Shown: positions 31 to 16,008 of the stretch, in pieces
How the letters are laid out: each line of letters begins with the position of its first letter
Position numbering within the stretch: position 1 is the first letter of the stretch
Translations under genes and position numbers: made by a program
Assembly: GCA_963847625.1 (NCBI GenBank)
Contig: CAWKAR010000045.1
Coordinates: forward strand, 1-64,000
From: a candidate division FCPU426 bacterium
GTDB taxonomy: Bacteria; Oederibacteriota; Muellerivitia; Muellerivitales; Muellerivitaceae
DNA: 64,000 nt
Reading direction: 5' to 3'
Notes under the pieces: model-generated
Databases searched by the model: none
The model's input: only the letters and a program-made list of their open reading frames with translations
Told to the model about the DNA's origin: nothing

Positions 31-268
31 TGCCCCGCAAATCTTTAAGGGAAGCATAAGGATTCGCGGGACTATACCAACTTCATTGTAATTTTCAGAA
101 GAGGAGAGTCGGCATGCGCCGATCATCCATAAAGAAATATTGAGATCGGTACTATACCGGCAACATTAAATGCTACAAGGAGAGTCGGCATGTGCCGATC
201 CTCTATAAAAATATATTGAGATGGGCATTATACCGGCAACATTAAATGCTTCAAGGAGAGTCGGCATG
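31..268 (+). repeat. Three tandem copies (84, 76, 76 bp) of a double-hairpin element joined by shared TG dinucleotides
   Basis: AGGAGAGTCGGCATG recurs at 102, 178 and 254. Each unit is TG-(hairpin 1)-TATACC...GGCA. The reverse complement matches the copies at 3594, 3851, 4033, 11344 and 15833. Confidence 0.85.
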
Positions 269-517
269 CGGTCGCAAATCATACAAATCGGCAATTCGAA
301 AGGCATACGGATTCCACGGCCCCTCTTGGAGCAGTGCCAGCTGGAGGATGAAGTCGAGTTGGAGGCCCAGCCCGGCCAACTCGTGGTGAGGCCGGTCGGC
401 GGACTCCGCCAGGGGTGGGCCGCGGCTTTTGAGAAGATGGCCCAATACGGCGACGACGGGTTGCTGGATGAGGGCGGTCCCGCGACCGAATGGTCCCGTA
501 AGGACTGGAAATGGTAA
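266..517 (+). CDS. mazE: AbrB/MazE/SpoVT-family antitoxin
   Basis: IIQIGNSKGIRIP AbrB-type N-terminus. ATG 266 follows AAGGAGAG. Overlaps the toxin gene. Confidence 0.9.
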   Translation: MRSQIIQIGNSKGIRIPRPLLEQCQLEDEVELEAQPGQLVVRPVGGLRQGWAAAFEKMAQYGDDGLLDEGGPATEWSRKDWKW

Positions 518-834
518 TCTCGCGTTTCGAGGTTCATTTGGTCCGGTTGGACCCCGCCGAGGGAAGCGAAATCAAAAAGACCAGGCCTTGCCTGGTCATC
601 TCCCCCGACGATATGAACCAATATATCCGGACAGTGATCGTAGCCCCCATGACGAGCAAGGGGAGGGATTACCCGACCCGCGTCCCGGTCGAATTCCAGG
701 GTAAACAGGGCCAGATCGTCCTGGACCAGATCCGAACCGTGGATAAGACCCGTCTCGTTAAAAAACTGGGTAAGATCGGTGACGCGACCTCGGAAAAGGT
801 ATTGAGGCTCCTCGGGGAAATGTTCGGGCCCTAA
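511..834 (+). CDS. mazF: PemK/MazF-family mRNA interferase toxin
   Basis: LDPAEGSEIKKTRPCLVIS...VAPMTS...DQIRTVDKTRL PemK motifs. Confidence 0.93.
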   Translation: MVISRFEVHLVRLDPAEGSEIKKTRPCLVISPDDMNQYIRTVIVAPMTSKGRDYPTRVPVEFQGKQGQIVLDQIRTVDKTRLVKKLGKIGDATSEKVLRLLGEMFGP

Positions 835-1019
835 GGAACAAAGTTGATGCTTTTCCAGGGTGTTCATTGGCCCCTTTTTCCTTCCATTATTCGGGCTGAA
901 AATACGGTTTAGGAAACCTTTTTCCTAATTTCTGCCTTTTTTTATGGCACTTTTTTAAACCCCCCTTTTAAAATTATCCCAATTGGCCGCCTAACCATAT
1001 GGTCGAAAAGGGCTTCAAA

Positions 1020-1091
1020 TTGAGGTCACAATTTGTGATTTCAAGATGGGGTTAAAGAGACTTCTTTAAGGTCACAAATTGTGACCTTAAA
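1020..1091. promoter_or_regulatory. Two related palindromic boxes (core TCACAA-N-TTGTGA), putative protein-binding sites
   Basis: TTGAGGTCACAA-T-TTGTGATTTCAA (1020-1044) and perfect TTTAAGGTCACAA-A-TTGTGACCTTAAA (1065-1091). Confidence 0.6.
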
Positions 1092-1104
1092 AGATAGCCC
1101 GATA

Positions 1105-1524
1105 CCCCAGTAGAAAGGGCCGGTAGACCCAGTAGACAAAGCCGGTGCCCCAGTAGACAAGGCCGGTAGACCCAGTAGACAAGGCCAGTACCCCGGTAGA
1201 AAGGGCCGGTAGACCCGGTAGACAAGGCCGGTACCCCAGTAGACAAGGCCAGTACCCCGGTAGAAAGGGCCGGTAGACCCGGTAGACAAGGCCGGTACCC
1301 CAGTAGACAAGGCCGGTAGACCCGGTAGACAAAGCCGGTACCCCAGTAGACAAGGCCGGTAGACCCGGTAGACAAAGCCGGTACCCCAGTAGACAAGGCC
1401 GGTAGACCCAGTAGACAAGGCCAGTACCCCGGTAGAAAGGGCCGGTAGACCCGGTAGACAAGGCCGGTACCCCAGTAGACAAGGCCGGTAGACCCGGTAG
1501 ACAAAGCCGGTACCCCAGTAGAAA
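1105..1524. repeat. Tandem array of 19 full plus one partial 21/22-bp units, iteron/centromere-like
   Basis: Mostly alternating CCCCAGTAGACAAGGCCGGTA (21 bp, 10 copies) and GACCCGGTAGACAAGGCCGGTA (22 bp, 9 copies) with minor variants; no unique spacers. Confidence 0.95.
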
Positions 1525-1536
1525 AAGGAGGATGCC

Positions 1537-3384
1537 TTGGCAGATCAAAAGCTTGATACTTTGGCATGGTTGGATAATTTGTCTGATTTGGAAGCCGAAC
1601 TTAAGAAAAACCCCTCTATCAATAGTGCTGATCTTATAAAAACCTTAAATCTCAGCAAATCGATGGTTTATTTCCTTTTAGCCATAAACAGTTGTTTTGA
1701 TCCGGTGGCGATAAAGAAGATTCGCGTGGCGGCAAAGGCTATCCCCATTTATGAACTTACTTTTAACAACGCCCGGGCTATAGGCAAATTGAAAGGTAAA
1801 GTGCCGGATCTGGATCTCCCTGAAGTGGTCCACGAGGTGCTGGATGTGACCATTTCCAAGCGATTGATCACCATTCAAATCGAGAGCCTGGTAGCCCATG
1901 TCATCAGCGGCAAACCGGCCAAGGATTTCAACCCCTCCCAGGCGCCAACCAGCCGCCCTAAAAAAGCCCCCAAGCTTAAACCTGAAAAGACCGAAAAAGC
2001 CCAAACGGCCTTGGACCAGCGGTTGGAGGAGGCCAAGGCCGGGGGTAAACCGCTGACCCTAGGAGAAAAGCTTGGATTGGCGGTTGAGGTATTACGAGGT
2101 GACGCCTCAAGCGGCCAAGAGGATGCTAAAACGGAGGCGGAACCTGATCCTGAAAAGCCCGCCCATACCAAGTCCAAGGGCTCAACGAACAGAATTTTGG
2201 TGTTCCTGGGAGGTTTTTTTGATATCACCCGGAAAGACTTTGAGGCCAGAAACTTGGGGGTGCTTAGCCGCAAAATCCTAATTGGGATTTTCAAAGCGAT
2301 TGGGCACTTAATAAAATGGCTCTTCAAAGTAATTTGGATTGTGATTAAATGGCCATTCAAGGAAGCTTGGTCCGTCGTGGGGAGGCCGGTAAAAAAGGTG
2401 GTTGCCTTGGCTATCCTTGCCGGCATCGTCCTTTATTTCTTCTTTCCCGCCAAATACCAGGCAGTGTATCAATTACTGAGGGAAAAAACCGTTCAAGCCG
2501 CCTATGGCGCCTATCACAGGCTATCCGAAATTCATAATTCATCATCCAAAATTCAAAATTCGGGCTCAATCGCGCCCGTTGAACCTTCCTCAATTCAAAA
2601 TTCATCATTCAAAATTCAAAATTCGGGGGCAACGGGCGCACCAGCGCCCACTGCCCCCGTTGCTTGGGATTTTTCCTTCGAATCCGAAACACAAAGGGAC
2701 AACGAACTATTTCCCATACCTGGTTACTGCATCATCAAGCCCATCCTTCCCCCGGTGGCGGGAATGGACGCGACGATGGCGGATAATCGGCTTGCCCTCC
2801 TACAGGATTCCCACAAGTATTCCGTCTGGTATGGGAATGACAGAGTGACCGTTGAATCAGTCACCGTAAATCCAACGTCCCTATCCTTGGCATTCATGGA
2901 TAAAGGAACGGCGTTGCTTAATTGGGACAACCTGAAGGCCATCCATTGCGACGAGATTCGGGTATACGCGAATAACAAGGAAAAGATTTTATACCAATGC
3001 GGGCTGGTGTCATCCAACCTTGAAAAGGCCGTCGAGGTCGAATGCCCCTCGCAGGAGAATTTCAACAGCCTGGTTTCGGCCCTACTCTATTGGGCCAAGA
3101 ACATCGCGCCTTCGGGCCTGCCTTACCTTCACCAGGGATTGGTACCCGATGACCTCGGGAAGGTCGGGGCGTTATGGGCCGGAAGCCCGGCGGACAAGGC
3201 GGGTATGGAATTAAGCGACGCGCTTTGGGGGGTGGACCGGGACGGCGTCCGCCAACAAAAACCCCTCGATGTGGTGCGCCGGTTGGACGCGCTCAAGCCT
3301 GGTAGGCATGGGATTTACGTGATCCGGGACGCGAAGGTGTCACCTAAAACGCCACGGATGAGGCTGGAAATAAACATACCATAA
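1537..3384 (+). CDS. Membrane-anchored protein: N-terminal ParB/Spo0J-like HTH region, amphipathic helix plus TM, C-terminal PDZ-like domain
   Basis: SADLIKTLNLSKSMVYFLLAI...LTFNNARAI...KRLITIQIESLV resembles the ParB HTH region. TM is VVALAILAGIVLYFFFP. GSPADKAGM is a PDZ-like motif. TTG start after AAGGAGG. Confidence 0.7.
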   Translation: MADQKLDTLAWLDNLSDLEAELKKNPSINSADLIKTLNLSKSMVYFLLAINSCFDPVAIKKIRVAAKAIPIYELTFNNARAIGKLKGKVPDLDLPEVVHEVLDVTISKRLITIQIESLVAHVISGKPAKDFNPSQAPTSRPKKAPKLKPEKTEKAQTALDQRLEEAKAGGKPLTLGEKLGLAVEVLRGDASSGQEDAKTEAEPDPEKPAHTKSKGSTNRILVFLGGFFDITRKDFEARNLGVLSRKILIGIFKAIGHLIKWLFKVIWIVIKWPFKEAWSVVGRPVKKVVALAILAGIVLYFFFPAKYQAVYQLLREKTVQAAYGAYHRLSEIHNSSSKIQNSGSIAPVEPSSIQNSSFKIQNSGATGAPAPTAPVAWDFSFESETQRDNELFPIPGYCIIKPILPPVAGMDATMADNRLALLQDSHKYSVWYGNDRVTVESVTVNPTSLSLAFMDKGTALLNWDNLKAIHCDEIRVYANNKEKILYQCGLVSSNLEKAVEVECPSQENFNSLVSALLYWAKNIAPSGLPYLHQGLVPDDLGKVGALWAGSPADKAGMELSDALWGVDRDGVRQQKPLDVVRRLDALKPGRHGIYVIRDAKVSPKTPRMRLEINIP

Positions 3385-3593
3385 AAAGAAATTTTGAATT
3401 TTAAATTGACGGCTTAAGCGAACCATTCTTAGCCACGGATTCAGGGGATTCATTTAGATGGCCGAAGGAAAAAGGCTTTAAATATTGGTGACTATACCTT
3501 TATGACACGTCAAGAATTTTATTTACCGCCGATAACGGCCGATTAACGCCGATAACAGCTTACAGCTTAAGGCTTTCCCAACTTATCGGCGTT

Positions 3594-3677
3594 CATGCCA
3601 CTTCACTATTGAAAGGATTTCAATTGAAAGTGGTATTGTCCCGCAATCCATTAACTTTTTTATGGAGATGCGGGACA
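3594..3677 (-). repeat. Double-hairpin element copy
   Basis: CATGCCACTT...AAGTGGTAT-T-GTCCCGCA...TGCGGGACA. Confidence 0.8.
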
Positions 3678-3850
3678 TCGGATTTGATCGGCGGTTCCAT
3701 GACTTTTTGCTTTTACTTGTTGTAAAGGGATACTTAAATTTTAAAGGTGACTACCTTCACGACACGTAAAGAAATTTTTTACCGCAGATAACGGCCGATT
3801 AACGCCGATAAAGGCTTAAAGTTTAAGGCTTTCTCAAACTTATCGGCGTC

Positions 3851-3934
3851 CATGCCACTTCACTATTGAAAGGATTTCTAATGAAAGTGGTATTGTCCCG
3901 CAATCCATTAACTCCTTTATGGAGATGCGGGACA
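3851..3934 (-). repeat. Double-hairpin element copy
   Basis: Near-identical to 3594-3677. Confidence 0.8.
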
Positions 3935-4032
3935 TCGGATTTGATCGGCGGTTACATGTCTTTTTGCTTTTGCTTGTTGAAAAGGGATACTTACCTTAAA
4001 TATTTATGTTTATAAATCCCATGAATCCCATG

Positions 4033-4111
4033 CATGCCAGCCTTCAATAATTCTTTTAATGAGGCTGGTATCGTACCGATTTCTTTAACTGTCTTAATGT
4101 GAATCGGCACA
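4033..4111 (-). repeat. Double-hairpin element copy
   Basis: CATGCCAGCCT...AGGCTGGTAT-C-GTACCGATT...AATCGGCACA. Confidence 0.8.
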
Positions 4112-4535
4112 TCCGTGGCTAAGTTTTATTTTGGACAGGTGTGAAGATTTATATGGAAAAATGGCGCGGAAATCTTTGGGGTCGAAACCTCTGTTGGCCG
4201 CTTTTTAATAGTTTTTCAGAGGTTTCAGTATTTATTACTGGTTCCATTTGCGCCTCAGTGAGCATTACACATACAGGGATCCCCTTGCGCTCACGAGCGC
4301 ATGAATCGGGTGGGCCGCTTGGTTTAAGCTTTCATGAAGGGGCGGGGGTTTTAATAAACAGCAAAAGCAAAAGCGGTTGTCCCCAAACGCCCCGGGGAAG
4401 ACTTGAACTGTTAGTGCCTTAAAACAGCCAAAAGCGGCCGGAATGAAAACCCAAAGGAAATACCGGTTTTTGTGGTTTTAATCCGGGTTGGGTACTAAGT
4501 TAGAGGGAGTTTATTACGGGAAAAGGAAGGCGAAA

Positions 4536-4742
4536 ATGTTTTTAATTATTTTCACTATCCAAAAACAAAAAGTCTGTATAAACACTGATAATATTACCGA
4601 TATTTGTTTCATTCCTAATAAAGGCGCAATTATTTACACGAATGGAAATCAAGAACCAATTGCAATTTCAGAGGAAGAAGCATCTAAAATATTAAATAAA
4701 ATCGGGGCTTTGGGTATTCACGAACCGGATCGTAAATATTAA
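4536..4742 (+). CDS. Small hypothetical protein (68 aa)
   Basis: ATG 4536 after AAGGAAGG; AT-rich; protein-like composition. Confidence 0.55.
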   Translation: MFLIIFTIQKQKVCINTDNITDICFIPNKGAIIYTNGNQEPIAISEEEASKILNKIGALGIHEPDRKY

Positions 4743-4855
4743 ATAAACCCCCCCCCATCACTGGGTAGTAAACGATGCCAAGGACGGAAGGGATTTATAG
4801 TTGATTCATCCCCGGGGGAATTAAAAGTTGAATATGCGGACATGGAGGCTGGCCT

Positions 4856-5392
4856 ATGCCTGGGACAGGGTTGACTCATCGCTTTTGTCCGACTCGGCGG
4901 TTTTTTTGGGTTATTTGGCTGCTGCTTCTGTATCCCCCCGCGGCCGGAGCCGCGTCCATCACCGATGGTGATCATCAGAAAAATCCGGAAGTTTTCTATA
5001 AAGGGGAATACCCCGTATTAGGGCTGACCTTTGGGGATATCCCCCCCTTCCTCAACCTAGTGGGAGGGTATTATTGGAAAGATTATGGTTTCAAGCTGAA
5101 CGGATTCTCGGCCGGGGGATTGGAAAGCATACAACTCGATCTGTCGAAAAAATTAACCGACACGAAAAATTTCTCCGCCAATTTATCCCTGGTGGGCGGT
5201 TATATCAATTTAGGCGGTGCCATCAGCACGATTGTTTCCCTCGGAACGGTGTCCCGGGGTTTGGGGTTTTGTTATGGAGGCGCCGGCATGGATATCAATT
5301 GGGGCGGTTTCGCGGTGGAGTTGGATACCGTTGCGATAACCGATCAAATAGTCCCTGCCTTCCAGATTGGTTACATACAAAGATTCAATTAA
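4856..5392 (+). CDS. Secreted small outer-membrane beta-barrel-like protein
   Basis: GGAGG RBS, signal peptide, Gly/aromatic alternating strands, C-terminal GYIQRFN. Confidence 0.65.
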   Translation: MPGTGLTHRFCPTRRFFWVIWLLLLYPPAAGAASITDGDHQKNPEVFYKGEYPVLGLTFGDIPPFLNLVGGYYWKDYGFKLNGFSAGGLESIQLDLSKKLTDTKNFSANLSLVGGYINLGGAISTIVSLGTVSRGLGFCYGGAGMDINWGGFAVELDTVAITDQIVPAFQIGYIQRFN

Positions 5393-5533
5393 GGGTACCT
5401 CTATAAATTGCTGTTCCCCTTCTCCCTAGAGGGGAGAAGGATGGGATGAGGGTGGAAATAGCGAGGTTTTTTACCCCTCACCCTACCCTCTCCCTCAAGG
5501 GGCGAGGGCTTAAATGAATTTTTAGAGGTTCCC
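5393..5533. mobile_element. 141-bp MITE-like element with TIRs and TTAA flanks, enclosing a REP-like palindrome pair
   Basis: TTAA|GGGTACCTCTATAAATT ... AATTTTTAGAGGTTCCC|TTAA. Internal CCTTCTCCC-tagag-GGGAGAAGG and CCCTCTCCC-tcaag-GGGCGAGGG. Confidence 0.75.
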
Positions 5534-5808
5534 TTAAGAAAAAGGCAACCACCGGGTAAACCCGCTCAACCGCTTAAACCGGTGTCAAAAAAACGCCATC
5601 TTTGTTGGAATAAAGCCCACCCAAGAACCACTATATAGCAGGAGAAGATGGAAAGCGGATGATTCCCTGATTAAGGGGCTCCATTCATTGGCATGGTTGA
5701 TGCATTTATTAAGGAATAGATGTCCGCTTGAAGCGGTCTTACCGCCTGGGGTTGAAAGGGGCCAGGCGACCGCACAACGCCTTTGGACGCCGGAAAGCGA
5801 GGGGAGTC

Positions 5809-5958
5809 ATGGATGAGAATTGCGAGAAAATCAAAAAGATGCTGGACCTTTACCGGGAGGGAAAATTGACGGATTCGGAAAAGGCCGATGTGGAATACCA
5901 CTTGCTCTATTGCCCGGAGTGCATATTCCTTTTGACCATAGTGCCGTCATTAAACTAG
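5809..5958 (+). CDS. Stand-alone anti-sigma-type zinc finger (zf-HC2-like) microprotein, 49 aa
   Basis: CEKIKKMLDLYREGKL...HLLYCPEC (HxxxCxxC); GGGGAG RBS. Confidence 0.75.
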   Translation: MDENCEKIKKMLDLYREGKLTDSEKADVEYHLLYCPECIFLLTIVPSLN

Positions 5959-5996
5959 GACCTTTGAACAACCGGTAAAACAATTGATAAATCCCT

Positions 5997-6022
5997 GCCC
6001 GCCCTGCCCGGCGGGCTTTTTT
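5997..6022 (+). terminator. Rho-independent terminator
   Basis: GCCCGCC-ctgccc-GGCGGGC followed by TTTTTT. Confidence 0.8.
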
Positions 6023-6198
6023 GTTTTAAGGCACGGTCCCCGAACATAGAGCGTCCATGGAAGAAAATCCGGGGACGGGCTTAACATTTTGAGAAGGGAA
6101 TTGAAAACTCTTCCGGCGATTTAGACCTGATTCACCCCGATGATGAAAGAAATTGAAATGGGAGTTGGGAATTGACCGCAAGACATCCATATGACAGG

Positions 6199-6909
6199 TC
6201 AGGCCAGGTCGAAAAGCAGTATTTCAGCCGGCTCTTGGGCCGTAAAGGATACGCATCTTTCGCCCGTGAAACCCGCCCCATCCCCCGTGCGCAGCTCCAG
6301 CTCATCCAGGCTGATCCGGCCTTTCACCACGTGAAGCCAGGCGTTCCGCCAGGGCTTCAGTTCGTGAATGATGTGATTGCCCTGGCTCAGGAGAGTGGAG
6401 TACATTTCGACGTCCTGCTGGAGTTTGAGCGAAGCCTCTTTTCCGCTGGAGGAGGCGATGAGCCTCAGGGCCCCCTTGCGCTCGGCAAGCGTAAAATGCT
6501 TTTTCTGGCCGCCCGGCTCCAACACGCCCACGCCGGGGGTGAATTCGCTCCGGAAGACATGCGCGTCGCCGGTTCTTGAGGCGCCTGCCATGGATTGCTC
6601 GGCGTCGGCCGGGACGTTGATCCGGTGGAAGCTTCCCTGCCTTAGTAACGAGTTATTTTCCTGCGGGTCGTAATAGATCACCACGCCCTCGTGGATATAG
6701 GTCACGACCACCATGTCCTTGGGCGTGCGGAGGATGAACGCCTTGCCGGGCGTTAGGACTTCCTCGTTGAGTATTTTGAGCACGCCGAAGCCGTTTCGCA
6801 GGGGATCGGCCTCGTTTTCCCGGTCGAAAGTCATCCGGGTTTTTTGCATCTCGTTTGCGATATGGCGGCGTTCTTTTGACCTTCTTACGGTAATCAATTC
6901 CACCCCCAA
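6199..6909 (-). CDS. Pirin-family bicupin lacking the metal-binding His motif
   Basis: FGVLKILNEE and AWLHVVKG...GDGA...AEILLFDLA pirin C-terminus. Start may be TTG at 6897. Confidence 0.85.
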   Translation of the reverse strand: MGVELITVRRSKERRHIANEMQKTRMTFDRENEADPLRNGFGVLKILNEEVLTPGKAFILRTPKDMVVVTYIHEGVVIYYDPQENNSLLRQGSFHRINVPADAEQSMAGASRTGDAHVFRSEFTPGVGVLEPGGQKKHFTLAERKGALRLIASSSGKEASLKLQQDVEMYSTLLSQGNHIIHELKPWRNAWLHVVKGRISLDELELRTGDGAGFTGERCVSFTAQEPAEILLFDLA

Positions 6910-6930
6910 GGCGCTTGCCTGCCGGTTTGA

Positions 6931-7308
6931 CTAATGAACCGGCAGTAAAGTATTCCTAAAGCACTTTTTAACGGCCGATTCGACGTTGGAAAAAGATTTC
7001 AAAATGCTGTCAAATTCCAACATTTTGAATACCTCCGTGACTTCAGGGCTCATTCCCACCAGGACCAAATCCCCTTTTTGATTGCGGATCCCCTTGATTT
7101 CACTGATAAAAATACCCCAACCCGCGCTGCTGATGTAGCCCACATCCTTCAGGTCGATCACCAGCTTGGTCTTTTTTTCAACTATGACCGAATGGAACTT
7201 TTCCTCGAATTCCGAGGCCGTGGTGGTGTCGATGTATCCCTTGACCGTTAAAAGGGTGATGCCCTTGTCGTGGGGATATTCGGAAATTTTGACCGATAGG
7301 TTGTCCAT
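6931..7308 (-). CDS. STAS-domain anti-sigma factor antagonist
   Basis: VKGYIDTTTA...VIDLKDVGYISSAG motif. Confidence 0.9.
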   Translation of the reverse strand: MDNLSVKISEYPHDKGITLLTVKGYIDTTTASEFEEKFHSVIVEKKTKLVIDLKDVGYISSAGWGIFISEIKGIRNQKGDLVLVGMSPEVTEVFKMLEFDSILKSFSNVESAVKKCFRNTLLPVH

Positions 7309-7343
7309 GGTTTCTCCGGTTAATGCGGCGAGTAAGGGCTTTC

Positions 7344-7583
7344 TCAGTTATTTTTTTCCAGCCGCTGTTTTACCCAGTGGAAGATACCGCTTACGGGGCA
7401 GTTCGCGTTGCTTAAGCCTATGCGCACTTTCTTTTCCGACTCGACCCAATCGCTCAATTCGTCACCCGCCTGGGCGTAACGCTTGCGGTTCAACCAGCTG
7501 TAATAAGCGGCTTCCTCGATGTTCTTTTTTAAATCTTCCCCGGTCTGGAGGGGGGCTGGATTGGCTGGATTTGTTTTGGCCAT
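7344..7583 (-). CDS. DUF2934-like small protein
   Basis: IEEAAYYSW...GDELSDWVESE pattern. Confidence 0.75.
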   Translation of the reverse strand: MAKTNPANPAPLQTGEDLKKNIEEAAYYSWLNRKRYAQAGDELSDWVESEKKVRIGLSNANCPVSGIFHWVKQRLEKNN

Positions 7584-7649
7584 GGCAACTTCCTTGATCG
7601 TGATTTGAACTCAAGCCGGTTTTGCGGGAAACGGCTAATGATTAAAGAA

Positions 7650-7665
7650 AGCAAGAAACAAGCCA
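7650..7665 (-). promoter_or_regulatory. Putative sigma54 -24/-12 promoter for the leftward DUF2934-STAS-pirin genes
   Basis: TGGCTTGTTTCTTGCT on the minus strand (GG-N10-GC). Confidence 0.6.
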
Positions 7666-7728
7666 CGAATTGGCAGGCCTTGAACATCATTATTCGGCGT
7701 TCCAGGTGATCCGCGCCTTTGGAAGGGA

Positions 7729-7759
7729 ATCAAAATGAGAGCGGGAAGATCATTTTGAT
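7729..7759. promoter_or_regulatory. Inverted repeat, candidate enhancer-binding-protein site
   Basis: ATCAAAATGA-N11-TCATTTTGAT between two divergent sigma54-like promoters. Confidence 0.5.
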
Positions 7760-7864
7760 CGGCCCTTCGCGGCCGGGGTCCGCGTAAAAATTTCACCGGT
7801 GCGGGAAACCGTGGTTTCCCGGGGCTGGAAAAGAATCCGGGATAAAATACCCCCGCGCCCCGCG

Positions 7865-7880
7865 CGGTACGGAACTTGCT
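7865..7880 (+). promoter_or_regulatory. Putative sigma54 -24/-12 promoter for the rhodanese genes
   Basis: CGGTACGGAACTTGCT (GG-N10-GC) about 40 bp before ATG 7922. Confidence 0.55.
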
Positions 7881-7921
7881 TTAACCGGTGGCAGTCTCAA
7901 AAACTCCAAAGAGGTGAAAGC

Positions 7922-8311
7922 ATGGGAATGTCGAAAGAAGCCGTAAAAGACAAGATGAAGGACGCGAAGGTCGTGGTGTTGAACGTCCTGCCGGAGAGTG
8001 ATTATTCGAAGCTCCATATCAAAGGCTCGGACAACATTCCGATGGGACTCAAGGACGACGATTTCGTCCAGGCGGTCGAGAAGAAGTACGGGAAGGACAA
8101 ATTCTTTATCACTTATTGCGCCGGCTTATCCTGCAACGCGGGGCCAAACGCGGCCAAAGCCTTGCAGAGAAAGGGTTTCAAGGCTAATGATTTTAAAGGC
8201 GGTATCGCGGAATGGTCGAACGCGGGTTATCCCACCGAAGGAACCGAAGCGAAGGCCCCGGTAGTTGCAGTGGCGCCCGCACCGGCGGCGGCTTCCGCGT
8301 CGTCGAACTAA
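7922..8311 (+). CDS. Rhodanese-like domain protein
   Basis: HIKGS, ITYCAGLSC, FKGGIAEW; GAGG RBS. Confidence 0.9.
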   Translation: MGMSKEAVKDKMKDAKVVVLNVLPESDYSKLHIKGSDNIPMGLKDDDFVQAVEKKYGKDKFFITYCAGLSCNAGPNAAKALQRKGFKANDFKGGIAEWSNAGYPTEGTEAKAPVVAVAPAPAAASASSN

Positions 8312-8446
8312 TTTTTTGCGGACCGCGTTCCCTTGGGGGAAACGCGGGGTTTCTCCATGTAATCCACGCAAAAATGAAATTGGAATGGTAGTTAAGGATA
8401 TCGGGTTGGATGGATATCACGGCGTCATCACGGAAAGAAGGGTCCG

Positions 8447-8803
8447 ATGTTACTCACAAAAGAAGCGTTATTAAAAAAAATGAAACAAGACCATGTACTG
8501 GTTTTGGATGTTCTTCCGGAAGTGGAGTTTCAAAAAATCCATATCCGGGGATCACGCAACCTCCCATTGACCCAGGATTACAGCGCTTTTGTCCAGGAAG
8601 CCGATAGGTTGTACGGGAAAAACAGGATTTATATCACCTATTGCTCCGGCCATACCAACGCGGTGGGCGCCAATGCCGCCAAAATCCTCCGGGAACATGG
8701 CTTCGCGGCGGAGAATTATCCGGGCGGGGTCGAGGAATGGAATGAGGCGGGATATCCCGTGGATGGTATCCAAACCGGCAAACTAGCCGGGTCTCCCCAA
8801 TGA
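8447..8803 (+). CDS. Rhodanese-like domain protein
   Basis: LDV...HIRGS, ITYCSG, YPGGVEEW. Confidence 0.9.
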   Translation: MLLTKEALLKKMKQDHVLVLDVLPEVEFQKIHIRGSRNLPLTQDYSAFVQEADRLYGKNRIYITYCSGHTNAVGANAAKILREHGFAAENYPGGVEEWNEAGYPVDGIQTGKLAGSPQ

Positions 8804-9156
8804 ACCACCTGGTTTTAGTCCACGATTCGGAGAAACTCAAAATCCAGGAGCCTTGGGGTTCCATGGCGTGGATGGCCAACCAGTCCCTTTCCGGAAGCTC
8901 GGTGTCCGTGGGCCGTTTGATCCTCTATCCCGGTTTTTCAGGTTCCCCGCACAGCCATTCCAACGCCGATGAGGTCATTTACCTGTCCAGGGGAAGCGTC
9001 CACGTGCAAATCGGCGGTTCGGAGACGCGCCTTCACCCGGGAGACGCGCTGACGATTCCGTTGAAGGTCGTCCATATGATCAAGAACAGCGGGGAAGAAG
9101 AAGCCGAAATGACGCTTTCCTATTCGTCCGGCATCAGGAAGTACACGTCCGAATAA
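8800..9156 (+). CDS. Cupin-domain protein
   Basis: PHSH...DEVIY...GDALTIP...VH cupin motifs. Confidence 0.9.
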   Translation: MNHLVLVHDSEKLKIQEPWGSMAWMANQSLSGSSVSVGRLILYPGFSGSPHSHSNADEVIYLSRGSVHVQIGGSETRLHPGDALTIPLKVVHMIKNSGEEEAEMTLSYSSGIRKYTSE

Positions 9157-9367
9157 CATGCCTTCCGCCCTGTTGATTCTTCGTAAAAAAGTGTCTACAT
9201 ATTACAGGATGGAATTTATTTAAATTCCCAGGACCTATCGCGAAGGTTTTAGAAAACACATCCGGCGATTTAGACCGGATCCACCCGGTCAAGATGTGGA
9301 AAAGGGATTGTTTTTTTGTCAGCGGGATACAATGGGTTGCTAAAAAAATTAAGGGAGGCGCGGTTAT

Positions 9368-9784
9368 ATGAGTAAATTTGAGAAGCATTTATTGAAGTAT
9401 TCGGAGGAAGCCTACGGCTTATTGCGGATCGTGTCCGGATTTTTATTCTCGTTCCATGGGGCCCAGAAGATTTTGGGTTTGTTGGCCGACCCCAATATGC
9501 GGCCTCCGGTGGGGTCCGAAATGTGGATCGGCGGCATCATTGAATTGGTGTGCGGGCTGTTGATCTTGGCGGGTTTTCGAACGACCTTCGCCGCGTTCCT
9601 AGCCAGCGGCCAAATGGCGGTGGCTTATTTTCAATTCCATTGGAAGTTCGCGTTCGACAACAATTTTTTCCCGATCGTCAACCACGGCGAGCTGGCGGTG
9701 ATTTACTGCTTTGTATTTCTCTTGATCGCCACCCAGGGCGGGGGGAAGTGGTCTGTCGACAATTCAAAGCGGAAGCGGCGTTAA
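9368..9784 (+). CDS. DoxX-family membrane protein
   Basis: LLRIVSG...HGAQK...MAVAYF...GELAVIYCF...GGGKWSVD. Confidence 0.9.
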   Translation: MSKFEKHLLKYSEEAYGLLRIVSGFLFSFHGAQKILGLLADPNMRPPVGSEMWIGGIIELVCGLLILAGFRTTFAAFLASGQMAVAYFQFHWKFAFDNNFFPIVNHGELAVIYCFVFLLIATQGGGKWSVDNSKRKRR

Positions 9785-9911
9785 GGACAAAGGGGCCGCA
9801 AATTACGCGTTAGAATTTGATTAGAATTTCCCGAACCTATTGCGAATGATATATCCCCTGAAAAAAGTTAGAAATTAGTCCCAACTATTTTTTTGATAGT
9901 TGGGACAACCA

Positions 9912-10061
9912 CCTATTGGGCTTGCGCCTACCCGTTGGACTTGCGTCCACCCATTGGACTTGCGTCCAAGGGCGATCAAGAGCATCGAAAGCGATAAAGA
10001 GCATCGAGGGCGGTAGAAAACATCGAGGCATGCGTCTCGGCTTGTGGCCTCGACGCATGCC
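9912..10061. repeat. Two back-to-back triplets of 19-bp tandem repeats followed by a REP-like hairpin
   Basis: CCCRTTGGACTTGCGTCCA-like x3 (9912-9968); RRGCGRTNRARARCATCGA x3 (9970-10026); GGCATGCGTC...GACGCATGCC (10027-10061). Confidence 0.75.
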
Positions 10062-10570
10062 GACCCTCAATAAAGCTTATAAGGAGGGAACGGCTTTGCC
10101 GTTCCAGGGTGTATAGCACTGATTTTCATAACGGTCTTATTTTTAATCAGCGCAAGAGCTTGTACCCATTGTCTTTCAATGGGCATTACCAAACTCTGCC
10201 CCTCACCGTTGGAGCCTTTTTTGGCTCCAACACATTCAAGGCATGCGCCTCAACTTGAGGTTTCGGCGCAGAAGCTGGTGGGTGAAGGGCAGGTAAATAG
10301 GCTCATGGCAGGTGCGGTTAGAAGTTGGGAATTGACCACGAAACGTCAAAAGAATTAAAACCATTCCTTCCCAATTTATTGCGTTTTTCAAAGAATCCCT
10401 GCCGTTTATCCCAAAGCGTTAAAATAAAGGCAATTCAAAGACAATGGATGGTGAGCTTGCCCTGTGTGAAACGAAGGAAGTCCAACCCGGGAAGCCATTT
10501 AAAGAGTTGGCTTTAAAAAACATGGTTATAATAAAAGTCGTTGATGGAAGCTTTTATATAGGGGGACGGT

Positions 10571-10843
10571 GTGAATTCTTTCAAAAAATTGAACCTTTTC
10601 CTTTTTATTTTCACCTTTATCGGCCCGCTGACCGTTTTGTTTCTTGGCCTGATGGGAATATTAAGTTGGACGTTGGCGATGATTCTTTTTACCGCCATTG
10701 TTCTGACTGTTTCGATTTACGCTTCCAATATCAAATGTTCCCATTGCGGGTTTCGCTTTTCCCGATTTGTGATGCAACCCTGGTGGTGTCTGGTGCTTTG
10801 GCATAAGAACTCGAAATGCTGGAAGTGCGATAAAGAATTTTGA
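10571..10843 (+). CDS. Small membrane protein with zinc-ribbon-like CxxC...CxxC
   Basis: Two hydrophobic helices, then KCSHCG...KCWKCD; GGGGGA RBS, GTG start. Confidence 0.6.
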   Translation: MNSFKKLNLFLFIFTFIGPLTVLFLGLMGILSWTLAMILFTAIVLTVSIYASNIKCSHCGFRFSRFVMQPWWCLVLWHKNSKCWKCDKEF

Positions 10844-10905
10844 CCATAATGGTTATTTCCCCGCCGCTCAAAATTTGATCGCCAGATCATCCGCTGGAGG
10901 CATAA

Positions 10906-11298
10906 ATGAAATTCCAAGATTACATTGTCCGTGACCCTAATATTCTCAACGGGGTTCCGGTGATCAAGGGAACCCAAGTCGCCTTGAACGTTGTTCTTGA
11001 ACACTTGTCATTGGGCGATACCCTGGAAAACATCGTCAGCTCTTATCCGGGATTAACCCCCGAAGCGGTCAGGGCTGTCATCGCTTACGCGGCGTCCCTG
11101 GCCAAAATGGACCTGGACCGGTCGACCCCAGACAAGGGGGAGTTCTTTTCGATCGACGTCGTCAATATTTATATCCGCCAGGGACTTTATCCCCAGGCCA
11201 CCAATATCATCCGCTATATGCTCCGGAAAGATCCCAAAAACCCGAAGTTGAAGAAAAAATTGGAACAGTTGAAAAAGTTGATGAAGCGGAAGGGTTAA
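10906..11298 (+). CDS. DUF433-family protein with C-terminal TPR-like extension
   Basis: DPNILNGVPVIKGT...YPGLTPEAVRAVIAYAA, then IYIRQGLYPQA...DPKN. Confidence 0.85.
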   Translation: MKFQDYIVRDPNILNGVPVIKGTQVALNVVLEHLSLGDTLENIVSSYPGLTPEAVRAVIAYAASLAKMDLDRSTPDKGEFFSIDVVNIYIRQGLYPQATNIIRYMLRKDPKNPKLKKKLEQLKKLMKRKG

Positions 11299-11343
11299 TT
11301 CGTATCTTTTTGGAAGGCATTAATCAAAAGAATTTCTTAGCCA

Positions 11344-11421
11344 CATGCCAATCTTCCATGAAGCTTATAAAGTGATTGGTATCGTACCGATCTCCAATAA
11401 TTTTTATGGATGATCGGCACA
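11344..11421 (-). repeat. Double-hairpin element copy
   Basis: CATGCCAATC...GATTGGTAT-C-GTACCGATC...GATCGGCACA, interrupting TTAGCCACA|GATGCAGGGGAT. Confidence 0.8.
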
Positions 11422-11654
11422 GATGCAGGGGATACATTTAGATTAGGCAAAGAAAAAGAGCTTGTAACCTCTGGAAAATTGGGAGCTGGTAAACGGGGAA
11501 ATTGGCTTAAAAATCCTTTGAATTCCATGGTTTTTTAAATAATAAAATTTATGGATTAAATCAGCTTTTAACCGTCTAGAGGGTAGAAGATGTGATCAAT
11601 ACCCTTTAGCCCTATGACGCATTTTCGGATAGTAGGTCGGTTTCCGAGGCGCGT

Positions 11655-12929
11655 ATGAATCGAATGCCGGTTCTTCATGGAACAGCTCTTTTGGTTTTAG
11701 GGTTTATTTTCTTCGTGGCTGGATGTTCCCAAAAGTTTAATGTGCCTTCCTCGCCTTTGCCACCCGCCCTAAATACCCCAACTGCCACTTTGACGAATAC
11801 CTCTACGACGACAGTATTAGTTTCCACAAATACTTTTACTTCTACTGCGACCAATACGCCCACCTTTACAATGACGCCAACTTCAATCATTCCCACGAAT
11901 ACTTTCACGAATTCGCCGACAATCACACAAACACAGACTTTCACATCTACTGGGACTTTGACAAACACCCCGACTTGGACATTATCACCTACAACAACAG
12001 TAACACCCTCACCTACTCTTACCTACACATCTACAAATACCCTGACTATTACCAATACCCCGACGATTACAAGCACTCCCACAATTACCAATAGTCCCAC
12101 TCCCTGGCCAACGGGGGTTCCCACCTGGACGTTAACGCCCACGTTTACTGCGACGAACACGGCTACTGCCATTACGATTTACACCACCGGTCTATACAAT
12201 ATTGATTGTTGGAATATCTCGTGGGGTACGGTGACCATCATGGGGGCGGTGACTATCATTACTAATTGTTTTTCCCTAAACGCTGGTGCCACAATTCTGG
12301 GCCTTGCTGAAGCTTATCCACCGGGCATGTCTCCATGTCAATTTTCAATTGGTAATTGGATTAACGGCGGTGGTGGGCATGGGGGCGCTGGAGGGGCTGC
12401 CGGTGACCCGAATTGCGATGTGTGCCCAGGGGAAGCCGCATTCGATGATCCGATACATCCTACTTCAACAGGTGGCAACGGCGGAAACGCTGATTGCCTG
12501 GGGGGTTCTCAACTATATTCCGTAGGTGGCGGGCTTCTCGATATTATCGTTTATAACTCTGTCAGCGGAACATTGGGCGCTGCCACTATTAATGGAACTA
12601 TCAATATGAATGGGAATGACGGTTGTTGGGGATGTGGTTGCTCCTCTGAATCTGGAGGAGGGGGTGCGGGTGGAGCCATTATAATTGAAGCCAATGAAAT
12701 TGACGGGGGGGGAACAATGACCGCAAACGGAGGAAATGGTGGAACGTCCTCGGGTTCTGGCGGGGGCGGGGGAGGAATCATTTCCCTGATTAGGAATATA
12801 TCTACTTTCTCCGGAACCTTTTCGGTTGGTGGCGGAAATGGTTCAGTTTCATATTGCACACATCCGATCGTATTCAACGGTTCACCAGGCATAGTGTCTT
12901 TCACATCGGCGCCTGTTACAGGATATTAA
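11655..12929 (+). CDS. Lipoprotein with Thr/Pro-rich stalk and Gly/Cys-rich C-terminal domain
   Basis: Lipobox VAG-C; TxT repeats; GGGGAGG and GGGGGG motifs. Confidence 0.85.
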   Translation: MNRMPVLHGTALLVLGFIFFVAGCSQKFNVPSSPLPPALNTPTATLTNTSTTTVLVSTNTFTSTATNTPTFTMTPTSIIPTNTFTNSPTITQTQTFTSTGTLTNTPTWTLSPTTTVTPSPTLTYTSTNTLTITNTPTITSTPTITNSPTPWPTGVPTWTLTPTFTATNTATAITIYTTGLYNIDCWNISWGTVTIMGAVTIITNCFSLNAGATILGLAEAYPPGMSPCQFSIGNWINGGGGHGGAGGAAGDPNCDVCPGEAAFDDPIHPTSTGGNGGNADCLGGSQLYSVGGGLLDIIVYNSVSGTLGAATINGTINMNGNDGCWGCGCSSESGGGGAGGAIIIEANEIDGGGTMTANGGNGGTSSGSGGGGGGIISLIRNISTFSGTFSVGGGNGSVSYCTHPIVFNGSPGIVSFTSAPVTGY

Positions 12930-12940
12930 TTCCTTTTCCC

Positions 12941-15106
12941 TCAAATTTTTGCGCCAAACCACCGGCAGGGAACCACGAACCAGGTTCGGATATGTGCCCG
13001 AAATCCCAATGCGAGTGCCAGCAAGAGCCAGAACCCTAAAGTAATCCACGAGCAGACATACAGAAGCACCGGCCTGTATTCCATCCGAATCTGGTGGTTT
13101 CCTGGCTGTTCCAGCGCCACCGCGCGGAAAACCCCGTCGGCCCGAAGAATGGGTTTTTCCACTCCATCCACCCAGGCGTGCCAACCCGGATAATAGGAAT
13201 CGGAAAGGAATAGAAATCCTGGCTGGTCCATTTTGCAATTCATTACGGCACTACAATTCCCGTAATGGGTAATGGCAGCCTCCCCAAGATAGCCATTCTT
13301 CCAAGAGGCATTTCCCATCGGCACCTTTTCCAACAGCACCTCACCCCGGATATCAACATTTCCGGCTTGGATGGCCCCCAATGCTTCGGAAGGGCCCGTG
13401 ACCAAGGCATACCCCCCCACCACGAAGGCCCGGGGAAGTACCTGGGTATTCACGATCGTCCCGTCCGATAGGGGTTTCCAGCGGCCGTTCGGGTGGTTGA
13501 AGTAACTGGGACTGTACAGGTACTTCAGGCCGACAAGGTCGGAAAGGGGGGTGTTCCAATCCGTGCGGAGGGCCTGCAGGCAGTCGTAGGCTTCCTTGAT
13601 GAGGATGGTGTAAGTGAACTCGCTGAGGGGTTGGTTTACCCGGGCGTCCATCTCGAAGTCGGCCAGATAGCCGGATTGGGCCCTGAAGGAAGTCTTGTCC
13701 TTTTTAATCGTATCCCAGGCCTCCCCCGGAAACATGGGAAGGCCTCTCAGGTAAAAATCCCCCTCTTTGGTTATCACGAAGCCTTTGCCGTAATGCCAGA
13801 GGTCGACGGCGCTTGCAACCACCAGGAGGGCGGGCAGGGCGGCCGCCAGGACTCGCACCAGTTTTTTTCTCTTGAAGGCCCAACTTTCCAGAAGCCGGTT
13901 CCATATGGTTCTCAGACCCTCCAGGGTGAGCCCCGCCGCGCAAGAGAGGCAAAAAAGGGTCAACAGCATGACGCGGGCCATGGCCCGGTTATGCGAGAAA
14001 GCAGGGAAGAAATCGTAGAAAAACCGGAAAACCCAATGGGAGAGGCTTGTCGAATCCCCCATGGCCAGCACCGTGAAAAGCAGGGCCAGGGCCCAGAACC
14101 AGCCGAGGAGGGGCTTTCGCCTCACCAGCGCCAAACCCGCGACCGCCAGGAAAAGGGGGATCAACCCGATATAGGTCGCCATCTCGTGGTAGCCCCAGTG
14201 CCCGGTGACGACGTAGCTGTTATCCAATGGCGAGCCCATGAAAAAGGGGTTGAGGAAGTAGCGAAGGTTTCCGGGGTTTGTATAGTCCGTCATGATGTCC
14301 TTGTAGGTCCAATCCCAGCGGTTGCTGAGCATGGCAAACCGCCATGAGGGAAGCCATTGGCAGAGGCTTAAAAGCGCCGCCACGATCAGCGGAAGGCCGC
14401 AGCCCAGGAGAAACTGTCCGAACCGGATTTCCTTCCTGACCCAAAGGAAGAATAGAAATAAAACCATCATCAGGATGGAGTAATAGGTCATCTGGGGGTG
14501 GCCTTCCAGGACCTGCAGGGCCATCAGGATTCCCGCAGCCGCCAGCCGGGAGGCCTTGAAGTCCCCGGTGAAGCGCTTCAGGAGGAACAACACCAGAGGG
14601 AACCAGGAGGCGGCCCAGACGAAATTCACCGCCCCGGAATAAGTGTGGGCCATGAAAAAGCTGGAAAAGGCGAAGGCCAACCCTCCAAGGAATGAACCCC
14701 AGGACCCGCCGCCGAGGGCCCGGATGAAAAGGCATGTCCCGAACGCCGCGAGGAACAAGTGCGCGAAACTCACCCAGGTCAGGGCCCAGCCGAGGGGGAG
14801 AACGAAACAAAGGAGAGAAAAGGGTGAAAAGACCGAATAGTTCATCATTTCCGGCAGGGGCTGGCCCAGGCTGGCAAAGGGCTCCCAAAAGGCGGGGTCC
14901 CCGGCCTTAAGGCATTCGACCCAGTAATGACGCATGGGATAAACCAAAGTCATGTCCCCGGTGCCCCAAACTAACCGGGGATTTGAGAGAGGCTCCCAAA
15001 GGAGGACCGTAAGATAGGCAACGTATAGGACCGCCGCGAGGAAGGCGGCCCGGTCCCACACTTGAACCGGCTTGTTTCCGGGTTTGGACTTGGATGGGGA
15101 AGTCAT
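12941..15106 (-). CDS. YfhO-family (GT-C type) membrane glycosyltransferase
   Basis: Multi-TM with WEPF..LGQP and GHPQ; C-terminal LPRAF...LSDSYYPGWHAWVDG...FRAV. Confidence 0.85.
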   Translation of the reverse strand: MTSPSKSKPGNKPVQVWDRAAFLAAVLYVAYLTVLLWEPLSNPRLVWGTGDMTLVYPMRHYWVECLKAGDPAFWEPFASLGQPLPEMMNYSVFSPFSLLCFVLPLGWALTWVSFAHLFLAAFGTCLFIRALGGGSWGSFLGGLAFAFSSFFMAHTYSGAVNFVWAASWFPLVLFLLKRFTGDFKASRLAAAGILMALQVLEGHPQMTYYSILMMVLFLFFLWVRKEIRFGQFLLGCGLPLIVAALLSLCQWLPSWRFAMLSNRWDWTYKDIMTDYTNPGNLRYFLNPFFMGSPLDNSYVVTGHWGYHEMATYIGLIPLFLAVAGLALVRRKPLLGWFWALALLFTVLAMGDSTSLSHWVFRFFYDFFPAFSHNRAMARVMLLTLFCLSCAAGLTLEGLRTIWNRLLESWAFKRKKLVRVLAAALPALLVVASAVDLWHYGKGFVITKEGDFYLRGLPMFPGEAWDTIKKDKTSFRAQSGYLADFEMDARVNQPLSEFTYTILIKEAYDCLQALRTDWNTPLSDLVGLKYLYSPSYFNHPNGRWKPLSDGTIVNTQVLPRAFVVGGYALVTGPSEALGAIQAGNVDIRGEVLLEKVPMGNASWKNGYLGEAAITHYGNCSAVMNCKMDQPGFLFLSDSYYPGWHAWVDGVEKPILRADGVFRAVALEQPGNHQIRMEYRPVLLYVCSWITLGFWLLLALALGFRAHIRTWFVVPCRWFGAKI

Positions 15107-15172
15107 GGGGTGGTCCGGAATAGTAAGACTACCGCCGGGATCGGCAACGGTTTTCGAAGGGTCGGGCCCGAA

Positions 15173-15601
15173 TTACTTGGAGGCGTTATCTGGTTCGCCC
15201 GTGTCACCGACAGCCTTTCCATTTTCGTCCAGCATTTTTTCAAGTTGGAGAAGTTGGTCATCCGTCAGGTCCTGCCGTCCGTTTTGTTTCATGAATTCGT
15301 ATTGTTGTTTCCGGGTATTCTTGATCCCCTCCCTCAGGTTTCCAGATTCCGTTTGGGTGATCCTGCCCGCTTTCATCGCTTCCGTGATTTTCTGCCACTG
15401 ACTACTTATCCGGCGGGCGATCTTGTAAAGGTTGGGGCGGGTGGAGGGAATGCCGATTAATTTCCCCGCTTTTCCGGAATGCTTTGCCGGGGCAATCACT
15501 TTTTTCGCTGGTGGGGTTGGAACCGGGGTGGGATCGGCTCCCGCCGGGCCCACGGTGAAAAGCAGGATTATTCCGAGGAATGCCAGGACTGAAGTTTTCA
15601 T
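15173..15601 (-). CDS. Secreted helical hypothetical protein
   Basis: GGAGG RBS, signal peptide MKTSVLAFLG...AGA, G.IT..E repeat-like helices. Confidence 0.75.
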   Translation of the reverse strand: MKTSVLAFLGIILLFTVGPAGADPTPVPTPPAKKVIAPAKHSGKAGKLIGIPSTRPNLYKIARRISSQWQKITEAMKAGRITQTESGNLREGIKNTRKQQYEFMKQNGRQDLTDDQLLQLEKMLDENGKAVGDTGEPDNASK

Positions 15602-15751
15602 TTGCCCCTCCCGCGCAAAATTGTGGAAACCAGTATGGCATATCACCTGGCCCGGCGGGGTTCAAGGGGAAAAGAACGGGTAGCACGGGTTGGCTGATAT
15701 AATGGAGTGAAATTTTAATTCTAAAAGGCGTTAAGCAAAACCAAGTCTTTT

Positions 15752-15919
15752 GCCACGGATTCAGGGGATGCACTCGGATAGTCCACAAAAAAGGCTTAAA
15801 TATTTATGTTTATAAATCCCATGAATCCCATGCATGCCAGCCTTCAATAATTCTTTTAATGAGGCTGGTATCGTACCGATTTCTTTAACTGTCTTAATGT
15901 GAATCGGCACATCCGTGGC
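15752..15919. repeat. Palindromic element GCCACGGAT...ATCCGTGGC containing a double-hairpin copy (15833-15911)
   Basis: 15795-15944 matches 3995-4144 with one mismatch. Confidence 0.85.
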
Positions 15920-16008
15920 TAAGTTTTATTTTGGGCAGGTGTGATGCATTATTTAAACTGGGGTTGTGTTGCCTCCGATGACATATTGAAACTTTATAAA
16001 GGGATAAC

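Follow-up and report, generated by a model that had tools for sequence, protein, structure and literature searches.

The window analysed here is a stretch of 64,000 nucleotides from a candidate division FCPU426 bacterium (contig CAWKAR010000045.1, positions 1 to 64,000), and nine copies of a roughly 77-base, two-hairpin non-coding DNA element lie in it. On the strand on which its flanking core dinucleotides read TG, the element consists of TG, a first hairpin (H1; TGCC-arm-loop-arm-GGTA), a 3-nt spacer, a second hairpin (H2; TACC-arm-loop-arm-GGCA) and TG again. The two hairpins are inverted homologues of each other, and the outer arms of the element make up a ~17-bp imperfect inverted repeat; a rod-like alternative fold exists as well. 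An initial annotation, made from the sequence alone, had listed eight copies; all eight were recovered with their cores (by alignment, with a covariance model for six copies and nhmmer for 31–116 and 191–268), but a ninth, at 10056–10154 on the minus strand, had been missed. In the following, G000 denotes the genome that holds the window, G001 its sister genome and C with a number a contig of G000. The copies are:

31..116, plus strand: first copy of a tandem array, cores included, a long-loop variant at the contig start (alignment, nhmmer)
115..192, plus strand: second copy of the array, with a TG core common to both neighbours (alignment, covariance model)
191..268, plus strand: third copy; its last A and TG core form the ATG of mazE, and its right arm gives a GGAG ribosome-site-like motif
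3594..3677, minus strand: copy with the CCCGCA/TGCGGG arm variant, within a host repeat (covariance model)
3851..3934, minus strand: copy in the second of two duplicated blocks (covariance model)
4033..4111, minus strand: copy with core 4110–4111, H1 4074–4109, spacer 4071–4073, H2 4035–4070 and core 4033–4034
4071..4073, minus strand: the 3-nt spacer of the preceding copy, reading C-G-A on the TG strand and T-C-G on the CA strand; the dinucleotides at the two junctions are complementary to it
10056..10154, minus strand: ninth copy, with a ~20-nt hairpin nested in H2 (covariance model)
11344..11421, minus strand: copy with spacer 11382–11384, at a host-repeat position with a mostly CG empty allele (covariance model)
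15833..15911, minus strand: copy identical to 4033–4111 (covariance model)

A G-T mismatch at the base of the first hairpin had been described as kept in all copies. A mismatch at the second pair is indeed conserved, but it occurs at the foot of H2 as well, may be either A-C or G-T (92/96 distinct H2 and 90/98 distinct H1 sequences) and is not present in every copy, those at 3594 and 3851 having a C-G pair at this position of H1; in some cases it flips between G-T and A-C while staying mismatched. The small deviations noted earlier for the three plus-strand copies are present, but some may be contig-end errors, the overlapping sequence of C63 being different: the window start (1–954) overlaps the end of C63 from position 30 with three substitutions and one indel in ~925 bp. 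Other contig ends overlap likewise, and the first 29 bases of the window, for which no other match exists, may have arisen in assembly. Folding is weak in the three plus-strand copies (z of −1.0 to −1.9); three minus-strand copies, folded on both strands, gave z of −3.3 to −8.3. The block 3487–3736 is duplicated at 3746–3993, the two holding the 3594 and 3851 copies, and the block 15795–15952, comprising host repeat and element, matches 3995–4152, both parts having been duplicated together. The orthologous intergenic region in G001 is without the cluster altogether.

Across the 4.43-Mb genome, a profile of the element body found 155 loci (E < 1e-3), and both hairpins are present in 139 of them (three of the 155 are counted twice because C63 overlaps the three-copy array at the window start), and gave no match in the reversed genome. 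The covariance model detected the element in 28 of the 30 other genomes of the host family and, weakly, in one of 68 genomes outside it. Strict patterns matched genome and metagenome contigs, one named record among the matches listed being labelled Candidatus Firestonebacteria; viral contigs yielded no strict match and three loose ones, all rejected by the covariance model, and the plasmids and phages searched contained no match. The covarying stems claimed for the window are borne out on this larger scale: in 44 copies picked for diversity out of 113 clean ones, 98.0% of 748 cells are paired and 13 of 17 pairs change on both sides, a level reached by none of 500 shuffles, with slid controls at 20–42%. 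The covariation falls inside each hairpin and not between the element ends. Apart from the foot mismatch, stem mismatches counted on one strand comprise 13 G-T and 12 A-C in H1 and 13 of each in H2; this equality on either strand argues that selection acts on DNA shape. Neighbouring genes on both sides could be assigned for 112 copies, of which 70 lie between tandem, 28 between divergent and 14 between convergent genes, a distribution that does not suggest a terminator role. No replication-strand bias of the copies was seen, against a noisy GC skew.

The evidence supports the earlier proposal of a non-autonomous mobile element that has a dinucleotide core, forms tandem arrays and inserts into host repeats of palindromic type. 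Element-free matches with exactly one core exist for 33 of 92 insertion contexts, and matches with two or zero cores for none; once five artefacts of tandem arrangement or overlap are set aside, 28 of the 33 remain. The example of an empty site originally offered, at 3429, is an empty copy of the host repeat, but its core differs (CA versus CG). The features of the window that bear on insertion are:

266..517, plus strand: mazE antitoxin gene, the start codon of which is the insertion site
511..834, plus strand: neighbouring PemK/MazF toxin gene, the partner in a bacterial toxin–antitoxin pair
3429..3460, plus strand: empty host-repeat copy of the same family as the inverted repeats flanking a GxxExxY gene on C49

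In two other genomes (G072 and G006), mazE homologues have an element-free, unbroken arrangement of operator, ribosome-binding site and ATG, and taking the array out of the region upstream of mazE in G000 restores the same spacing. G001 has a tandem array of seven copies; neighbours within arrays share one core. In G074, one host repeat has diverged copies that carry, at a single shared position, five identical element bodies. Orientation is fixed relative to the core (102 TG/TG and no CA/CA on the same strand among 139 copies). The targets are varied, with 83 distinct 18-mers and a weak H-TG-Y-R consensus, and are often other palindromic repeats; many insertions are in unique DNA and at start codons. 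Many copies have also spread as passengers of their host repeats, one major host repeat being the inverted repeat that flanks the GxxExxY gene of the genome. This gene (L293, C49:63653-66997) is bounded by inverted copies of the abundant repeat; GxxExxY genes are present in 27/31 family genomes, and a description of their link with the host repeat was not found in the literature searched. Since the right arm of the element ends in a purine-rich motif followed by A, a start is re-created when the element inserts at an ATG. By visual judgement, some six distinct genes that look real, mazE among them, start in this manner, and start-codon placement is not enriched (11/95 versus 31/238). A copy at C23:28682-28756 lies in frame at the start of a long open reading frame for a secreted protein.

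A point missed by the initial annotation is that the core, at either junction, finds its complement in the 3-nt spacer that separates the hairpins, and that the two change together. The 139 copies with both hairpins comprise 102 of the form TG/C-n-A/TG, eight CG/C-n-G/CG, four TA/T-n-A/TA and 25 others. With repeated contexts removed, C stands at the left junction in 7/7 C-n-G contexts and in 4/87 C-n-A contexts (Fisher 3e-8, a value that is overstated because kin contexts are not independent), and all four spacer–junction pairings hold in 89–92 of 96 contexts. G001 adds five CG/CnG/CG and two TA/TnA/TA copies, together with three exceptions (one each of CG/CnT/CG, CA/CnG/CG and TG/TnA/TG). 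In a tree of element bodies built without the spacer, which is poorly resolved, CnG copies are scattered over several parts beside CnA copies. Empty alleles at one host position read CG in 78 cases and TG in 13, and the filled ones read TG/CnA/TG in nine, CG/CnG/CG in three and CG/CnA/TG in two; at another position, TT alleles (40/90) are never filled as TT. Empty paralogues exist for 38 contexts, and the allele most often seen in them is TG for 24 contexts, CG for 13 and TT for one, and for several TG/TG copies the closest empty sites are CG only. This disparity between filled and empty alleles implies one of two things: selection of a matching allele by the element, or overwriting of the target base.

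These observations lead us to propose that the element most likely moves as an excised single-stranded dumbbell circle, cut and rejoined at the core by an enzyme acting in trans that is probably HUH/Y1-like, a reading to which we assign a probability of about 0.5. We infer that the element would be excised as a single-stranded circle with its ends joined at one core, that the circle would fold into a dumbbell in which the core pairs with the spacer, and that the spacer could serve as a DNA guide selecting or imposing the core dinucleotide at which the enzyme cuts and rejoins. In circular folding predictions both stems form in 76/94 copies on each strand, and the core of the predicted circle pairs with the spacer across a 1-nt bulge with pair probabilities of 0.51–0.75. 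On the CA strand, the spacer reads T-n-G immediately 5' of a hairpin. For a TnpA-REP enzyme, T2 and G4 of the GTAG guide direct cleavage to CA, the third base can be altered without loss, and a changed guide resets the cleavage site (PMC8266576); the natural spacer–core covariation appears to fit this guide-set rule. A published model has single-stranded BIME circles excising and integrating at a dinucleotide (PMC3333891). HUH-like chemistry is therefore favoured. The HUH/RAYT lead of the initial annotation agrees with such chemistry in the pairing of spacer and core, but a cognate gene was not found.

A number of results weigh against this proposal. The covariation of spacer and core rests on two alleles, seen in two genomes that belong to one genus, and the TA copies have the look of a single lineage. 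The 25 remaining copies of the 139 lie outside the three matched classes, and TG flanks are retained beside the odd spacers (CnC, GnA) of other genera. Hybrid junctions are compatible with more than one crossover point, neither a circle nor an excision was observed, and four DNA sequencing runs (small shares of each, short contigs) contained no joint skipping exactly one element. The GT[AG]G guide of REP elements is absent, the bases 5' of the element hairpins being A-T-n-G and A-C-n-A. None of 31 Y1 loci carries an element within about 1.5 kb, both element-free family genomes have Y1 genes, and such genes were not found in 9/31 family genomes, including the element-rich G021, G023 and G019 and the near-complete G004; the assemblies lacking them may have dropped them.

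The search for the enzyme covered several further classes. A Y1 profile and motif scan of G000 returned only the three known genes, which are bounded by a different inverted repeat and not by the element. Helix-turn-helix-bearing Y1 genes (L001–L003, L013) are bounded by short inverted repeats that are themselves targeted by an IS1111-type element. A transposase flanked by the same ends had been suggested as a check; no gene-bearing version with split ends was found in G000. When neighbour proteins around the G000 copies and 104 outside loci were clustered, resident IS30 insertions and two GIY-YIG genes were the only exceptions to a lack of recurring recombinases or transposases, and among 43 GxxExxY, GIY-YIG, recombinase and IS110 loci a copy was nearby at three. 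IS91 Y2 proteins were not found, in a search in which the positive control also gave no match; two reverse transcriptases are present. The recombinases of G000 comprise tRNA-island integrases, a recombinase trio and two others. At least seven related integrases of ~360 residues occur in G000, each beside a tRNA gene, and no strong XerC/XerD-like match stands out in the host family.

Other explanations account for parts of the same evidence. The folded circle could be the substrate of a tyrosine recombinase, in the manner of an empty attC-like cassette with two arms and a loosely paired 6/7-nt centre that undergoes one strand exchange and is resolved by replication. In topology the dumbbell equals a cassette circle without a gene, two mismatches and a bulge lying around its core, the H-TG-Y-R target bias resembles the circle junction and many tyrosine recombinases are encoded in the family genomes. 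However, the integron integrase exceeded the TIGR02249 cut-off in none of the 31 genomes (nor did any positive-control genome exceed it), there is no GTTRRRY box, none of the G000 recombinases just listed is flanked by a full copy and the chemistry would account for the pairing of one core base only; we consider this account unlikely, at about one chance in six. Slightly less probable again is movement with no dedicated enzyme, in which the element is copied in where hairpin repeats are nicked, through host repair or template switching, and replaces the target dinucleotide by its own, with amplification mainly alongside host repeats such as those that flank GxxExxY nuclease genes. Such a process would suit the TG/TG copies in host-repeat subfamilies whose closest empty sites are only CG (no TG in 12–20 matches) or only TT, the co-duplicated blocks of host repeat and element, and the wide occurrence of GxxExxY genes. 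Against it, the strict orientation, the exact ends, the mismatch kept through G-T/A-C flips and the family-wide persistence suggest a specific protein, G017 holds five GxxExxY genes yet no element, and many insertions lie in unique DNA and start codons.

Less probable by a clear step is a miniature transposable element with inverted repeats (MITE) of the IS110/IS1111 family, recombined at a 2-bp core under RNA guidance. The model for this is MITEPpu9/ssr9 of ISPpu9, which is non-autonomous, has a 2-bp core at both ends, forms tandem copies and circles and targets REP-like sequences (PMC12288879). The element shares the IS110-type trait of a 2-bp core at both junctions and one core in the empty site, and G000 contains 14 IS110 matches; yet it is ~77 bp long and symmetric, the three resident IS1111-type families have unrelated ends and targets, the element's own loops match their targets over 3.84/3.91 nt versus 3.73/3.81 nt in shuffled controls, and the targets are diverse, with 83 distinct contexts. 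The IS110 link drawn initially is thus unsupported. Two explanations strike us as highly improbable, and equally so. A MITE of the classical kind with terminal inverted repeats, for which a DDE or serine transposase would produce the 2-bp duplication, would be consistent with the imperfect inverted repeat of the outer arms and the rod-like fold, but not with an orientation fixed to the core, covariation confined to the hairpins or a spacer that tracks the core, and no gene-bearing partner with the same ends was found in G000. A structured regulatory RNA, kept primarily by host selection, was the alternative raised at the outset; the right arm does supply an ATG together with a motif like a ribosome site, and real start codons coincide with several of the copies. 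The balance of G-T and A-C mismatches, with no G-U strand preference, does not favour it, nor do the lack of enrichment at start codons, the orthologous region in G001 without the cluster and the absence of any match to the Rfam covariance models.

The element resembles several known systems in part. Integron attC sites carry RYYYAAC/GTTRRRY boxes. Like the element, attC cassettes conserve their fold and hardly their sequence, with the crossover of the circle inside a fold-back duplex; unlike them, the element lacks these boxes, gene cargo and an integron integrase, and is dispersed in many targets. PATEs have two same-strand subterminal hairpins, each with a 5' guide, and a 4–5-nt target without duplication. 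IS200/IS605 elements and PATEs share with the element, as modelled here, a DNA-guided target choice by base pairing and a single-stranded circle; the element differs in that its hairpins are terminal and inverted homologues, leave no room for a left guide and have a 2-bp core on both sides. Cyanobacterial SDRs, reportedly described by Elhai in 2008, are said to be tiny two-hairpin mobile elements whose families nest in each other. The double-hairpin elements (DHEs) of chytrid and fission-yeast mitochondria are tiny two-hairpin mobile elements as well, but are organellar and GC-rich, with no spacer–core covariation among the features described in the available text (PMC10085805). A further likeness is to the REP/BIME/REPIN elements with TnpA-REP (RAYT), which, as the element does, form intergenic, high-copy doublets of inverted hairpin units (PMC8266576, PMC3333891, PMC3116915, PMC6006769). 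They too keep a mismatch in the stem, occur in tandem arrays and are cut at a dinucleotide, and their tested guide rule is one that the T-n-G/CA pairing resembles (PMC8266576). Here the two units instead share one central spacer read on opposite strands, the ends are exact where those of REP are variable, and the element shows neither a flanking Y1 gene nor a pattern of co-occurrence with one. The element works like a REPIN/BIME or an empty integron cassette, yet it stands outside REP, PATE, attC, IS110 MITEs and classical MITEs on the features that distinguish each. In the literature searched, no description of the ~77-base family or of spacer–core covariation was found.

How tiny hairpin repeats such as REPINs, DHEs and SDRs move is a long-standing question, largely because their ends and intermediates are ill-defined. 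In the family described here the ends are exact, a dumbbell circle is predicted and the spacer of natural variants tracks the insertion site, and the mechanism is therefore directly testable with 77-nt oligonucleotides. For a small structured mobile DNA, its mechanism is unusually open to testing. Should the enzyme turn out to be other than a known Y1 protein, the element would point to an undescribed DNA-guided single-strand recombinase. A bolder generalization, which we find possible but rather doubtful, would make it the prototype of self-programming dumbbell mini-elements, with a central 2–3-nt guide usable on either strand and naturally reprogrammed (to TG, CG and TA, and to AC in the case of a sister family); a single-strand recombinase found throughout the lineage, and distinct from Y1/RAYT, integron integrase and IS110, would move them. 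By landing on start codons, where the ATG and the ribosome-site-like motif are restored, the element can rewire translation starts.

The sister family just mentioned is a 64-bp, two-hairpin repeat with 16 pattern matches in G000; it inserts at A|C, also inside H2 of the ~77-base element, and forms a tandem array with an exact period of 64 in G072 (L330). At each of its ends the junction bases can pair with the GT in its centre, a logic of spacer–end pairing that appears to support the architecture of the larger element. Its loci in G000 include:

C13:123354-123817: sister 64-bp family
C57:102987-103050: sister 64-bp family
C63:92945-93007: sister 64-bp family

A third small two-hairpin family is nested in H2 of the ~77-base element and is also found alone, possibly inside genes:

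C19:14974-15060: third two-hairpin family
C45:80934-81001: third two-hairpin family
26526..26595 of the window: third two-hairpin family

The ~20-nt hairpin in H2 of the ninth copy (window 10080–10115) recurs in H2 of other copies (C38:58217-58252 and C10:5716-5751). Elsewhere in the window, a tandem array of short degenerate repeats (1110–1520) lies upstream of an open reading frame of 615 residues that has no Pfam match and has paralogues in the genome.

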